A stretch of DNA of 64,000 nucleotides from Bacteroidales bacterium (GTDB taxonomy: Bacteria; Bacteroidota; Bacteroidia; Bacteroidales; UBA932): the NCBI GenBank assembly GCA_017450585.1, contig JAFSTI010000030.1:110-64109 (forward strand). The letters are read 5' to 3'. Of this stretch, positions 47,519-58,166 are shown piece by piece. A program made the translations under genes and the position numbers. The notes under the pieces were generated by a model that was not told where the DNA came from, searched no databases, and saw only the letters and a program-made list of their open reading frames with translations. Numbering within the stretch: position 1 is the first letter of the stretch; each line of letters opens with the position of its first letter.

Positions 47519-49078
47519 ATGATCCAGCAAGAAAAAATCAACGGACTGGTGGAGCGCAGAGCTGCTGCGCGTCTGGGCGGCGGTCAGAAACGCATCGATG
47601 CCCAGCATCAGAAAGGTAAGCTCACAGCCCGTGAGAGACTTGCTCTGCTTCTTGACGAAGGCTCATTCGAAGAGTATGATATGTTCGTGCAGCACCGTTG
47701 CACCAACTTCGGAATGGAGAAGCAGCATTTCGACGGCGACGGTGTGGTAACCGGACAGGGAACCATCGGCGGCCGTCTCGTTTACGTATTTGCCCAGGAC
47801 TTCACCGTCAGCGGAGGATCCCTGTCGAAGACTATGTCCGAGAAGATCTGCAAGGTCATGGACATGGCGGTTCGCAACGGTGCTCCGTGCATCGGGCTGA
47901 ATGACAGCGGTGGAGCCCGTATTCAGGAAGGCATTGACGCGCTGGCCGGTTACGGCGACATCTTCGAGAGGAACATCCTCTCATCAGGTGTCATCCCGCA
48001 GATCAGCGGCATATTCGGCCCTTGCGCCGGCGGAGCGGTCTACTCCCCCGCCCTTACTGACTTTACGCTCATGGTTAAGGATACGTCATACATGTTCCTG
48101 ACCGGTCCGGGTGTGGTCAAGCAGGTTACCGGCGAGACCGTTTCAGCTGAAGAACTAGGCGGCGCGAGCGTACATGCCGGCAAGAGCGGTGTCGCTCATT
48201 TTGCAGCCGACAGCGAACAGGAAGGCATCGCCAAAATAAAAGAGTTGCTGAGCTTTATCCCCCAGAACAATATGGAGACCGCGCCGGAGCTGCCGACCGG
48301 CGATCCCCTGTCCAGAGTGGACGACGCCCTGAATACCATTATTCCCGATAACCCGAACAAGGCTTATGACATGTATCAGGTTATCCGCTCGATCGTAGAC
48401 GACGGTAATTTCTTCGAGATTCATGAGTCATTCGCGAAGAATATCATCGTGGGATTCGCCCATATGAACGGACAGAGCGTAGGTATAGTGGCCAACCAGC
48501 CTAAGGTCCTGGCCGGTGTGCTGGATATCAACGCTTCTCGCAAAGCAGCCCGTTTCGTGCGTTTCTGCGATGCGTTCAATATCCCCTTGGTCACGCTGGT
48601 CGACGTGCCCGGTTTTCTCTGCGGTACACAGCAGGAATACGGAGCCATCATTACCAACGGAGCCAAACTGCTCTATGCCTACGGCGAAGCGACAGTGCCG
48701 AAAGTGACCGTCACGCTGCGCAAAAGTTACGGCGGCGCACACATCGTCATGAGCTGCAAGCAGCTGCGCGGTGATGTGAATTACGCCTGGCCCAGCGCTA
48801 ACATTGCGGTTATGGGTGCCGATGGCGCCGTGGACGTACTTTACGGAAAAGAAATCAAGGCCGAAGAAGACCCTGCCAAACAAGCCGAGATCGCGGCTCA
48901 GAAAAAGGATGAGTACAATGACCTCTTCTGCAATCCTTATCAGGCTGCGCAGAAAGGCTACATCGAGGACGTAATCGAACCCCGGAACACCCGGTTCCGC
49001 GTCATCCGGGCCCTCGAATCACTACGCGGTAAGAGACAGGAGATGCCTGCCAAGAAACACGATAACCTCCCGCTTTAA
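47519..49078 (+). CDS. mmdA: Methylmalonyl-CoA decarboxylase alpha subunit (carboxyltransferase)
   Basis: [32 protein letters not shown] and KKHDNLPL motifs, in an OadG/biotin-carrier/OadB context. Confidence 0.85.
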
Positions 49079-49081
49079 GAG

Positions 49082-49483
49082 ATGCTCTCCATTCTGCTGA
49101 ATATGACCAAAGGCGCCGAGGCGGTGGCAAGGACCGACCCCCACGGGTTTATATTGTCCCTGATTGCCGTAATGGTAGTTTTCTCCGCCCTGCTGATCCT
49201 GTATGGCATCTACAGCCTGACAGGACACGCGTTCACCGGAGGATTCAAACGTGCGCGCAGGAAACCTGCCGGACGTGATGCGGAGGTCGCCGCAGCGATT
49301 GCCATTGCCCTTAAGCAGGAACTGTCAGAGGCCGATCCTGAGGTCGCCGCGGCCATTGCCCTGGCGCTTGAGCTGAACTCCGGCGGCGCGCATGACAGCG
49401 AGCCGTACGTGATAACTATTGACAGAAAGCCTTCCGCATGGCAGGATAAGGCCCTCACTTTTAGAAAAATGCCATTGAGATGA
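49082..49483 (+). CDS. mmdD: Na+-decarboxylase delta/gamma subunit (OadG family)
   Basis: Single TM helix, duplicated EVAAAIA motif and AHDSE tail. Confidence 0.8.
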   Translation: MLSILLNMTKGAEAVARTDPHGFILSLIAVMVVFSALLILYGIYSLTGHAFTGGFKRARRKPAGRDAEVAAAIAIALKQELSEADPEVAAAIALALELNSGGAHDSEPYVITIDRKPSAWQDKALTFRKMPLR

Positions 49484-49926
49484 AACAATACAATTTCAAA
49501 ATCAACGGACATGAATACGCCGTTGAAATCAATTCCATAGCTGACGGCCGTGCCAGCGTGACGGTGAACGGTACCGCGTACGAGGTAGACCTTCCGGAAG
49601 GGACCGCCGCTCCGGTTCAGGCCCCGACTGCAGTACCTGTAGCAAACCAGGCTCCGGCACAGGCCTCCGCCGCTGCACCCGCACCGGGCAATGCTCCTGT
49701 CGCCTCCGGGGATGCCCTTATCATCAAATCCCCCATGCCCGGCACTATCATCGATGTGTGCGTCAAACCCGGCGACAGTATCTCCAGAGGAGCTAAGGTA
49801 GCGGTTCTGGAGTCCATGAAGATGGAAAATGACATACTCGCCGAGAAAGACGGCGTCATCAAGGACGTTTTCGTGTCCAAAGGTGACCAGCTCTCCGACG
49901 GAGACAAAATCGTTAGCATAGCCTAG
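49480..49926 (+). CDS. mmdC: Biotin carboxyl carrier subunit
   Basis: INGHEYAVE N-terminus, Ala/Pro linker, SPMPG and ESMKM biotinylation motif. Confidence 0.9.
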   Translation: MKQYNFKINGHEYAVEINSIADGRASVTVNGTAYEVDLPEGTAAPVQAPTAVPVANQAPAQASAAAPAPGNAPVASGDALIIKSPMPGTIIDVCVKPGDSISRGAKVAVLESMKMENDILAEKDGVIKDVFVSKGDQLSDGDKIVSIA

Positions 49927-49929
49927 GCG

Positions 49930-55369: not shown

Positions 55370-55978
55370 ATGGCCATTAAGTTTCAATATAACAAAACGT
55401 CTCTGACCAATCTCGGCAAGCAGCTGAAGGTGCGCCAGAAGGCCCTCCCTACCCTAAAGAATAAGGAGTCGGCCTTGCGTGCCAGCGTGCTGGCGGCGAA
55501 AAAAGAGTCCGAAGACTTCGAGCGCCGGGTTTCTCTGGCTCTCGACTCTTACGACTATATGGCCGCCCTTTGGAACGAGTTTGACGCTTCGCTGATAAGG
55601 ATATCGGACGTGACCCTGAAGACGGTAAAGGTGGCGGGTGTAAAAATCCCCGACCTGGAGGATATCTCCTACGAGATTCTGCCCTTCAACGCCTTCGCAT
55701 CTCCGGCCTGGTATGCCGACGGAGTCGCCATCTTGAAGCAGATAGCAGAGCTCGGTATCCGCAGTGAGATAGCGCTTGAGCGCTGCCGTATCCTGGATTA
55801 CCAGCGGAAGAAGACCACGCAAAAGGTCAATCTGTACGAAAAAGTGCAGATTCCGGGATATCAGGAGGCTATTCGTAAGATAAAGAGATATATGGAGGAT
55901 GAAGAGAACCTGAGCAAGGCATCATCCAAGATAGTAAAGACCCGCCACGCCGCGGAAGAAGAGGAGGAAACGCTATGA
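55370..55978 (+). CDS. V/A-type ATPase subunit D
   Basis: LPTLKNKE and KKTTQKVNLYEKVQIP motifs. Confidence 0.94.
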   Translation: MAIKFQYNKTSLTNLGKQLKVRQKALPTLKNKESALRASVLAAKKESEDFERRVSLALDSYDYMAALWNEFDASLIRISDVTLKTVKVAGVKIPDLEDISYEILPFNAFASPAWYADGVAILKQIAELGIRSEIALERCRILDYQRKKTTQKVNLYEKVQIPGYQEAIRKIKRYMEDEENLSKASSKIVKTRHAAEEEEETL

Positions 55979-57723
55979 TCGAGAAAATGACCAGATACGA
56001 TTTCATCCTGCTGAGCCGCGACACGGACGCATTCCTCGGCAGATTGCAGGAATTGGGAGTCGTGGATATCACCCGTTCGGTAAAGGCTGTCGATGAGAAA
56101 TCGGCGGCGATGATTGCCGATATCGACAGTCTGCGCACTCGCATGGCCTGGCTTGAGAAAGAGGATTTCAGCAAGGATGAACGCTACGCTTCCCTGCTCT
56201 CTTCAATCGCATCCTGTGAAAAGGAACGGGAGGATCTTTCGCATTGGGGCGCTTTCGATCCGGCGGCCGTTCAGGATCTCGCATCCAAAGGCTGTACGAT
56301 TCATTTCTATTGCCTCAGCCGTAAAAAATTCGACCCCGCATGGGAGGAGCAATACCCTCTGGAACTTATTTCTGAAGACGCATCCCGGATATGGTTTGTA
56401 ATAGTAACGACCGACCCCGAGGCTGAACTTCCTTCCGGAGAATGCGAGGCTCCGCAGATAAGCGCTACCCAGTGTGATGAAAGGCTCAGTTCTCTGAGAG
56501 GCGAGCTTGCCGCACGTGGAGCCGAGCTCATGGCAGAAAAGGCTACATTGCCCCAGATGCGTTCACGCTATGAAGCCTTACTCTCAAATCTGGATATTTA
56601 TCTGGCGGGAGTTGCGGTTCAGAAAGCGGCCGAGGATACGCTGACCGTCGTTACCGGTTTCGCTCCTTCCGATCAGGATGAAAGCCTGCGCGCAGAATTC
56701 AACGCCATGGACCTATATTATGTGAGCGAAAGAGCCGTAGTGGAAGACCAGCCTCCTATCAAACTTCGCAATAACCGCTTTGTCCGGATGTTCGAGGTTC
56801 TGACGGACATGTACGGCAGACCGGCATATGACGGCTTTGATCCCACTCCGTTCATTTCCATATTCTTCCTGCTGTTCTTCGCCATGTGCATGGGAGATGC
56901 CGGATACGGTCTTGTGCTGATGGTCGTGGGACTGCTGCTTCGCAAGGTAAAGAGCTTCAAATCACTTGCTCCGCTGGTAGTGACGCTTGGGGCTGGAACC
57001 GTGGTTATTGGACTGCTGTTCCATACCTTCTTCTCAATCGACATTTCCGGCTGGGAGATTATACCTGACGCTCTGAAAAAGATCATGGTACCGGCGAAGG
57101 TGTCTACTTATGACGGCACGATGGTACTGGCGCTTATCGTGGGTATCGTGCATCTGTGCCTCGCTATGATAGTTAAGACAGTGTATGCCACAAAAAACAA
57201 GGGCTTCCTGGGCAGCCTGAGCACCTGGGGATGGACCTTGCTGATCGTCGGCGGAGTCTGTGTGGGTGCCGTGTCTCTTATGGGAGTAATCGATGCCGAG
57301 GCGACCAGGATTGCCATAATAGTCATAGGCTTACTGTCCGCACTGGGTATTTTCCTGCTGAATAATCTTCATCGCAATCCGCTTATCAATATCGGCTCCG
57401 GACTCTGGGAAACATACAACACCGCTACCGGTATCTTGGGCGATGTGCTGAGTTATTTGCGTCTGTACGCGCTGGGACTTGCCGGCAGCATGCTCGGTTA
57501 TGCATTTAACAATCTGGCGACGATGGCTCTCGGGGATGGCGGAGCGAGATGGATAGCGTTTATACTCATTGTTCTGGTGGGCCATACGCTGAATATCGCG
57601 ATGGCGGCACTTGGAGCATTCGTGCATCCGCTGCGACTCAACTTCCTGGAGTTCTTTAAGAATTCCGGCTATGAGGGCAGCGGGAGGAATTATCATCCAC
57701 TCAAGAAATTAGTTAATAATTAA
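55975..57723 (+). CDS. V/A-type ATPase subunit I (a)
   Basis: [33 protein letters not shown] and [11 protein letters not shown] motifs. Confidence 0.95.
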
Positions 57724-57737
57724 TATTTAAAACAATT

Positions 57738-58166
57738 ATGTTAAATCTTATTTTAGGTTATCTCGGGCTTGGCCTCGTGCTCGCCCTTGCAGGAATCGGG
57801 AGCAGTATCGGTACTACTACCGCCGGTAATGCGGCCGAAGGTGCTCTTAAGAAAAAACCGGAAGCTTCCGGAACATTTATGGTTTTATCCGCTCTTCCTG
57901 CGACCCAGGGAATCTACGGTTTCGTCGCGTTTTTCATGATGCTTGGCAAGATGAAGGCAGATCCCGAAATGGGTCTGGTCATCTTCGGTGTCGGCCTGAG
58001 CGTCGGTCTCGTCTGCATGCTCTCAGCCATCCGCCAGGGACAGGTCTGTGCCAACGGTATCGTAGGTGTTTCCCAGGGACATGACGTCTTCACCAACACT
58101 CTCATCTACGCCGCTCTCCCTGAGTTCTATGCAATCCTCGGTCTCGTCGGCGCACTGATGGTCTAA
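57738..58166 (+). CDS. V/A-type ATPase subunit K (c-ring), Na+-binding signature
   Basis: Four TM helices with [13 protein letters not shown] and LPEFYAIL motifs. Confidence 0.93.

Follow-up and report, generated by a model that had tools for sequence, protein, structure and literature searches.

What purpose is served when the genes of a sodium-pumping decarboxylase run, almost without a break, into those of a sodium-type V-ATPase? The question is raised by a string of genes in a 64,000-nucleotide stretch of Bacteroidales DNA, referred to here as the window (assembly GCA_017450585.1, contig JAFSTI010000030.1, positions 110 to 64,109). Its contig, C162, is part of a 2.18-Mb metagenome-assembled genome (MAG; genome G000) that is 90% complete and comes from an uncultured gut bacterium of the genus Candidatus (Ca.) Cryptobacteroides. 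Genes were called from open reading frames together with Pfam and NCBIfam matches. Positions 47519-58166 hold 11 core genes, all on the plus strand: mmdA-D-C-B, encoding a decarboxylase of the methylmalonyl-CoA type, and then V-ATPase E-DUF2764-A-B-D-I-K (Table 1). As an answer, we tentatively favor a Na+-coupled carboxybiotin hub, in which oxaloacetate would load biotin and the carboxyl group would either go into malonyl-CoA or be released with export of Na+, on a sodium circuit shared with the V-ATPase.

Inside each half of the string, gene junctions are overlaps or gaps of no more than 14 bp, and the halves themselves are scarcely further apart. The mmdB stop codon (TAA, 51073-51075) and the ATG of subunit E at 51095 leave a 19-nt spacer, TAACATACATAACAGATAT. 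The NCBIfam alignment of subunit E begins at residue 1, which favors the start at 51095 over an in-frame ATG at 51014. No terminator-like hairpin was found on the plus strand at this junction. With the Bacteroidetes -7 box, TAnnTTTG, as a proxy for promoters, none was found in the spacer or the last 200 bp of mmdB, even with one mismatch, and the plus strand has none between 45997 and 61137. A scan for sigma-70 promoters, whose consensus is not applicable to Bacteroidetes, gave 9 sites where 8.3 were expected and was of no help. The simplest reading of these scans is that the 11 genes plausibly form one transcription unit.

Related loci put this junction in context. Among 18 relatives with a spacer of at least 47 bp, 15 carry a perfect TAnnTTTG, mostly TATATTTG, 27-70 bp before atpE, and some also have a hairpin and a run of T after mmdB. 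The mmd and ATPase genes are therefore two adjacent operons in most species. At the shortest spacers, those of the window (19 bp) and of loci L011 (31 bp), L019 (27 bp), and L031 (17 bp), the box is missing and would not fit. A tree of MmdA and MmdB groups the window with L011 and L019 at 99% support, so the promoter-less junction is inherited within a small clade. The fusion would then be a recent, clade-specific tightening rather than a necessity. Nor is tight coupling required in general, as the ATPase genes of most sister species are read from a promoter of their own.

It could be argued that even the window holds two transcription units, with an ATPase promoter inside the 3' end of mmdB, a spacer that is a by-product of compaction, no regulatory meaning in the arrangement, and only the Na+ gradient in common. 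The separate promoters of sister species, with a terminator sometimes standing between the clusters, fit this alternative, as does the fluidity of the linkage across the genus. The window is also poor in -7 boxes overall, with 27 where chance alone would give 20. However, the 200 bp upstream of atpE contain no TAnnTTTG box, even with one mismatch, the box-less spacer is inherited in a three-species clade, and four-base and zero-base junctions in the cluster are typical of translationally coupled operons. We regard two units as somewhat unlikely.

How widespread the linkage is was assessed in 80 related loci with MmdB 79-88% identical, of which 63 were informative and 17 were not. The ATPase lies 17-228 bp downstream of mmdB in 19 of the 80, about 600 bp downstream in two, and 1.3-7.7 kb downstream on the same strand in 21; a further 21 have none within 10 kb. 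The ATPase neighborhood is thus present in 42 of the 63 informative loci. By comparison, V-ATPase genes were found within about 9 kb of mmdB in none of 40 comparison genomes, which represent other Bacteroidales families and a second genus of this family, in regions picked non-randomly from long contigs among the matches listed. The mmd-V-ATPase neighborhood is therefore unusual and a trait of the genus Ca. Cryptobacteroides, but a fluid one, and its spacing classes switch many times on the MmdA and MmdB tree. A few Cryptobacteroides-type mmd loci are deposited under other names (L003, L017, L027, and L045, as Ruminococcus bicirculans, Butyricicoccaceae, Acutalibacteraceae, and Bulleidia) and are probably mis-binned or mislabelled MAG contigs. 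We found no paper on an mmd-V-ATPase fusion or on Bacteroidales without the biotin carboxylase AccC in the open-access literature; for the Bacteroidetes V-ATPase, published accounts already describe the gene set and the Na+ residues (PMC10197588; PMC2359735).

Both halves of the string carry the residues expected of sodium machines. In a phmmer alignment with Enterococcus hirae NtpK (PDB 2bl2), the LPATQ, RQG, and PEFY motifs of subunit K fall over LPGTQ, AQG, and VETY. Residues L53, T56, Q57, Q100, and E129 correspond to E. hirae L61, T64, Q65, Q110, and E139, so that all five Na+ ligands are kept. MmdB, the product of the sole OAD_beta gene in this genome, retains GGADGPT. It aligns with Salmonella OadB (6iva) at 354 bits, with the equivalents of D203, Y229, N373, G377, S382, and R389 all conserved; the roles of these six residues are those reported from mutagenesis in the Dimroth laboratory. 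From these conserved residues, the V-ATPase is predicted to be Na+-specific and MmdB to export Na+. A sequence-only reading of the same DNA had pointed to an unbroken run of 11 genes, a 19-bp spacer with neither promoter box nor hairpin, Na+ signatures in K and the beta subunit, and unlinked clusters in Bacteroides, all of which agree with the gene calls, scans, alignments, and synteny sample described above.

The V-ATPase does not stand alone in this genome. An F-type ATPase operon lies on contig C96, with a c subunit that reads GIGTIG...VEGA and lacks the Gln/Ser Na+ signature; by that motif, the F-ATPase looks to be of the H+ type. Nqr and Rnf-type genes are also present. A sodium-motive force can consequently arise without the V-ATPase, which is also not the only rotary ATPase of the cell.

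The metabolic setting is where the locus departs from its annotation. Methylmalonyl-CoA mutase (PF01642) was found in none of 26 genomes of the genus (this one, 24 congeners, and G077), as against 13 of 16 other families and 178 of 201 (89%) Bacteroidales genomes. The epimerase (TIGR03081) was not found in the genome, and a local tblastn search of it with Bacteroidales mutase and epimerase queries gave no match. For a CoA-transferase there is one candidate, an AcetylCoA_hydro/transferase-family gene. Without mutase and epimerase, succinate cannot feed the decarboxylase, and the complex would not serve propionate formation.

If not propionate, what does the complex make? The biotin enzymes of the genome suggest an answer. 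The biotin carboxylase AccC (PF02785) was not found here and occurs in only one of 61 genus genomes, where a canonical AccC, biotin carboxyl carrier protein (BCCP), and carboxyltransferase set stands beside FabF; tblastn of the present genome with the AccC of a congener returned only carB-type ATP-grasp matches. Type II fatty-acid synthesis (FAS II), judged by FabF and FabD, is present in this genome, and all but three of 61 genus genomes (58) have FabF. MmdA is the sole PF01039 carboxyltransferase in the genome, a family matched in 60 of 61 congeners and mostly by a single gene, and MmdC is the only biotinyl protein detected. The mmdADCB genes are thus the only biotin-enzyme set of the cell.

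The acyl pocket of MmdA points in the same direction. Ile409 aligns without gaps to Asp422 of ScPccB, a position at which Asp gives specificity for propionyl-CoA and Ile gives promiscuity that includes acetyl-CoA (PMC7835884), and it is Ile in all 74 genus loci. The pocket is accordingly predicted, from this residue, to be acetyl-CoA-permissive. Other families have Asp in 15, Ile in 14, and Cys in 10; AccC is missing from 12 of the 14 Ile genomes and 8 of the 25 others (Fisher p = 0.002, with no correction for phylogeny). An ACC-type (acetyl-CoA carboxylase-type) carboxyltransferase in G022 also has Ile. Against the MmdA equivalog model, TIGR01117, MmdA scores 796 bits, below the cut-off of 999. 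Glutaconyl-CoA decarboxylase was rejected as an identity for this protein, given roughly 100 bits for GcdA structures against 586-744 bits for 12S and PccB.

A candidate donor of carboxyl groups is also encoded. Contig C89 carries a 608-aa OadA/5S-like carboxyltransferase without biotin, and such a protein occurs in 29 of 31 genus genomes. The structures it matches best are the carboxyltransferase domain of Vibrio cholerae OadA (2nx9, 140 bits) and the 5S subunit (1rqb, 129 bits), and the metal ligands matching V. cholerae OadA D17, K178, H207, and H209 are conserved. The C-terminal pseudo-biotinyl domain has no Lys (no MKM), and having lost it, the protein would have to use MmdC. Phosphoenolpyruvate (PEP) carboxykinase, a source of oxaloacetate, is present. 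Pyruvate kinase (PF00224) went undetected here and occurs in only 4 of 31 genus genomes, compared with 14 of 14 controls; pyruvate phosphate dikinase (PPDK) occurs in 28 of 31, this one included, while G008 has pyruvate kinase and no PPDK. The genus seems to make pyruvate from PEP by PPDK, and an obligatory route from PEP carboxykinase through oxaloacetate and the decarboxylase, considered for want of pyruvate kinase, was rejected on this ground.

In three genomes (G055, G012, and G022; loci L106, L107, and L109), a further, separate gene for an OadA-like protein precedes one for a beta subunit of the OadB type, which shares 42-45% identity with MmdB. A biotin-domain match lies between these genes in L106, and none was listed for L107 and L109. 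The pair looks like a dedicated oxaloacetate decarboxylase pump. This is the only beta type in G012 and G055. G068 and G074 have second beta genes of this kind, which suggests that the pair occurs there too.

Put together, these observations are consistent with the following scheme. PEP carboxykinase would make oxaloacetate, and the 5S-like protein of C89 would move its CO2 onto the biotin of MmdC. MmdA would pass part of this CO2 to acetyl-CoA, giving malonyl-CoA for FAS II in place of the ATP-dependent acetyl-CoA carboxylase. In this scheme, the core shared by the genus (carboxyltransferase, BCCP, and 5S-like protein) would be an oxaloacetate:acetyl-CoA transcarboxylase, and the anchor and beta subunit would tie the carboxybiotin pool to the membrane in most species, this one included. 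MmdB would decarboxylate surplus carboxybiotin with export of Na+ or, in reverse, let an influx of Na+ carboxylate biotin; oxaloacetate decarboxylation yields about -34 kJ/mol and is coupled to 2 Na+ (PMC8085960). The V-ATPase would share the Na+ circuit with Nqr and Rnf. Both machines are reversible, and for the V-ATPase we lean towards an ATP synthase driven by the sodium-motive force, with the opposite direction less probable though a serious candidate, because Na+ export is already provided by Nqr and Rnf and the F-type enzyme is apparently coupled to H+. The E. hirae V-ATPase can synthesize ATP on a sodium-motive force in vitro (PMC12018189).

Several observations weigh against this scheme or loosen its parts. 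At the level of transcription, mmdA has no recognizable -7 box and lies 19 nt past a terminator-like hairpin, whereas upstream of mmdA in the sister loci L011 and L019 a hairpin is accompanied by a -7 box; a non-canonical promoter may also lie inside mmdB. At the level of synteny, the linkage is under no strong selection: in one third of the related loci no ATPase lies within 10 kb, and where the two sets adjoin, the ATPase mostly retains its own promoter. Genomes G071, G073, and G020 lack mmdD and mmdB, yet mmdA-mmdC stands directly before the V-ATPase, which suggests that part of the linkage is simple synteny. Because genomes without AccC are common where mmd and ATPase are unlinked, loss of AccC alone does not explain the fusion. 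The association of AccC loss with Ile is uncorrected for phylogeny, and related genomes are not independent. The 5S-like gene is unlinked to mmd here (C89 as opposed to C162), and its interaction with MmdC is predicted. As PPDK is present, the oxaloacetate route to pyruvate is optional. The homologous V-ATPase of Bacteroides fragilis is dispensable under standard conditions, its direction undefined (PMC10197588). Finally, all absences rest on MAGs, this one being 90% complete, although 13-28 high-quality congeners, the number varying with the search, agree.

The carboxybiotin scheme has a competitor that uses the same parts in the opposite direction. In this reverse mode, a "chemiosmotic acetyl-CoA carboxylase," the V-ATPase would spend ATP to export Na+, re-entry of Na+ through MmdB would carboxylate the biotin of MmdC, and MmdA would make malonyl-CoA. 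Dimroth and Hilpert are said to have observed in 1984 that a reversed methylmalonyl-CoA decarboxylase carboxylates acetyl-CoA in proteoliposomes. V-ATPase and MmdB would then jointly stand in for the lost biotin carboxylase. Reversal would account for the joining of the two sets in precisely the genus that has neither AccC nor mutase, to which the linkage is confined, and it sits well with a single carboxyltransferase and the presence of FAS II. The closest characterized enzyme, the V-ATPase of E. hirae, physiologically spends ATP to pump Na+ in a cell that also has an H+ F-ATPase, a combination found here as well (PMC10197588), and the high CO2 of gut and rumen favors carboxylation. If each carboxylation took 2 Na+ and each ATP moved about 3.3 Na+, the cost of this mode, were it true, would by our own estimate be about 0.6 ATP per malonyl-CoA rather than 1.

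However, congeners that lack the beta subunit (at least five; five to seven by our count) keep FabF, the carboxyltransferase, and BCCP without AccC, and the anchor is also gone where examined; for them a beta-independent, 5S-like donor suffices. In two of the genus genomes, G008 and G075, FabF, mmdA, and mmdC are followed 1.6 kb on by an OadA/5S-like gene, in a cluster that resembles a transcarboxylase. The stronger claim that reversal of MmdB is the sole route to malonyl-CoA is weakened by the same beta-less congeners. Nqr and Rnf already generate a sodium-motive force, and 75 of 201 Bacteroidales genomes (66 of 180 of high quality) lack AccC without the mmd-ATPase linkage. That count also led us to reject the idea that loss of AccC is special to this genus. 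OAD_beta is mildly enriched among the genomes without AccC (63 of 75 against 90 of 126). We therefore consider the reverse mode unlikely as the main role of the locus.

Two further genomic patterns are recorded alongside these counts. Twelve Bacteroidales genomes have neither AccC nor OAD_beta, and the mutase is kept in at least four of them (G028, G032, G035, and G040), which hints at widespread soluble transcarboxylases in the order. Thermotoga maritima was the only control genome without a Biotin_carb_C match, yet OAD_beta, PF01039, and PYC_OADA are present, so that decarboxylase parts without AccC also occur outside Bacteroidota.

The carboxybiotin scheme must also be set against purely catabolic roles. 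The decarboxylase might run forward on malonyl-CoA or methylmalonyl-CoA that does not come from succinate but, for example, from malonate or methylmalonate taken up by the cell and joined to CoA by a CoA-transferase. Lipid synthesis would then draw its malonyl-CoA from a different enzyme. The single CoA-transferase-family gene would suit this role, and biotin-type Na+ malonate decarboxylation is found in Malonomonas, whose model TIGR03136 matches the beta subunit weakly. The cluster, however, has no transporter, MadA, or MdcA gene, and carboxyltransferase and BCCP are kept in nearly every congener, even beta-less ones, and lie beside FabF in two, so that we find such a role very hard to credit. 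Equally improbable, and already largely refuted, is the proposal of the sequence-only reading that succinate-derived methylmalonyl-CoA is decarboxylated on the way to propionate while the V-ATPase uses the exported Na+ to make ATP: the MmdA/PccB/12S character of MmdA, the Na+ residues, and the CoA-transferase-family gene accord with it, but the pathway lacks its mutase and epimerase, MmdA falls short of its equivalog cut-off, and the specificity residue is Ile, not Asp.

Table 1. Positions of the genes and signals discussed, in coordinates of the window
Feature	Position	Strand	Remarks
-7 box before the TPR gene	45997..46004	+	TATCTTTG, perfect Bacteroidetes box, 43 bp 5' of the TPR gene; nearest one upstream of the string
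yebC/TACO1-family gene	46718..47470	+	Conserved upstream neighbor of mmdA in many relatives
Terminator-like hairpin after yebC	47477..47499	+	9-bp stem, T-rich tail; ends 19 nt before the mmdA ATG
mmdA, 12S/PccB-type acyl-CoA carboxyltransferase	47519..49078	+	Carboxyl_trans (PF01039), 654 bits
mmdD, OAD_gamma-family membrane anchor	49082..49483	+	PF04277, 37 bits (cut-off 27); one N-terminal transmembrane helix, Ala/Pro-rich linker
mmdC, biotin carboxyl carrier	49480..49926	+	PF00364, 67 bits; ESMKMEN at residues 111-117, MKM at residue 113
mmdB, Na+-translocating carboxybiotin decarboxylase beta subunit	49930..51075	+	PF03977 (OAD_beta), 483 bits; TIGR01109, 466 bits (cut-off 191)
mmdB-atpE spacer	51076..51094	.	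19 nt, without -7 box or hairpin
V-ATPase E, peripheral stalk	51095..51700	+	Pfam/NCBIfam
DUF2764, Bacteroidetes-specific second gene of the V-ATPase operon	51701..52300	+	Pfam; PMC10197588
V-ATPase A, catalytic	52306..54060	+	Walker A GPFGCGKT at residue 235
V-ATPase B	54050..55369	+	Pfam
V-ATPase D, central stalk	55370..55978	+	Pfam
V-ATPase I, membrane stator	55975..57723	+	Pfam/NCBIfam
V-ATPase K, double-hairpin proteolipid	57738..58166	+	Duplicated; all five E. hirae Na+ ligands
DAGK/YegS-type lipid kinase	58175..59161	+	Starts 8 bp past K
DUF4954/DUF6819 protein	59109..61115	+	Overlaps the end of the kinase gene; next plus-strand -7 box at 61137

The surroundings of the string deserve brief mention. 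The DAGK/YegS-type kinase gene is probably on the same transcript as K in this genome, to judge from their spacing; the extension downstream of K is not conserved, and in L031 the kinase lies on the opposite strand. The whole segment from 45997 to 61144 may be a 15-gene super-operon of about 15 kb with an internal attenuating hairpin, or may use non-canonical promoters. In L015, L021, L022, L026, and others, about 550 bp of extra sequence, the size of a small gene, separates mmdA from mmdD, which the window lacks.

Comparison with known systems shows which parts are familiar and which are not. The window's mmdADCB has the same four core parts as MmdABCDE of Veillonella parvula and Propionigenium modestum (TC 3.B.1), in the gene order of other Bacteroidales. 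It differs from these systems in that mutase and epimerase are missing, Ile replaces Asp, and the set is the only biotin set, with no acetyl-CoA carboxylase beside it. P. modestum has an unlinked F-type Na+ synthase, whereas in the window mmd is joined to a V-type ATPase. The seven ATPase genes match the operon of B. fragilis and other Bacteroidetes in content and order, in the duplicated K with its Na+ ligands, and in coexistence with an H+-type F-ATPase (PMC10197588). In Bacteroides and other families, by contrast, this is a separate operon, while here the promoter-bearing leader is gone and the genes start 19 nt past mmdB. With E. hirae, the five NtpK ligands and the pairing with an H+ F-ATPase are common to both, but the window's enzyme has fewer stalk subunits (no F, G, or C, with DUF2764 instead). 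The E. hirae enzyme pumps Na+ in vivo but is able to make ATP in vitro (PMC12018189).

The proposed transcarboxylase has its own precedents. A 12S-like (1on3, 586 bits), a 1.3S-like, and a biotin-less 5S-like component, the parts of the Propionibacterium freudenreichii transcarboxylase (12S/5S/1.3S), are all encoded here. In contrast to that enzyme, they lie on two loci, are accompanied by a membrane Na+ subunit and an anchor, and would form a putative complex, and the proposed acceptor is acetyl-CoA rather than propionyl-CoA. In Entamoeba, a malonyl-CoA-forming transcarboxylase that uses oxaloacetate and acetyl-CoA can replace ACC (PMC8136499). MmdB resembles OadB, and the 5S-like protein resembles OadA, of the OadGAB pump of Vibrio, Klebsiella, and Salmonella (6iva, 2nx9), but the OadA-like protein here is unlinked and has no biotinyl lysine.

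Bacterial fatty-acid synthesis is regarded as starting universally from acetyl-CoA carboxylase. In the present case, an entire, abundant gut and rumen genus keeps FAS II without biotin carboxylase or a propionate pathway, and biotin carboxylase is also missing from 37% of the Bacteroidales sampled. As the sole remaining biotin enzyme of this organism is its so-called methylmalonyl-CoA decarboxylase, a route to malonyl-CoA that is free of ATP or coupled to Na+ becomes directly testable. Automatic annotation of mmd genes as a propionate marker is wrong for the genus, which matters for the prediction of short-chain fatty acids from metagenomes. The fusion itself offers a natural handle on the physiological direction of the uncharacterized Na+ V-ATPase of Bacteroidetes.

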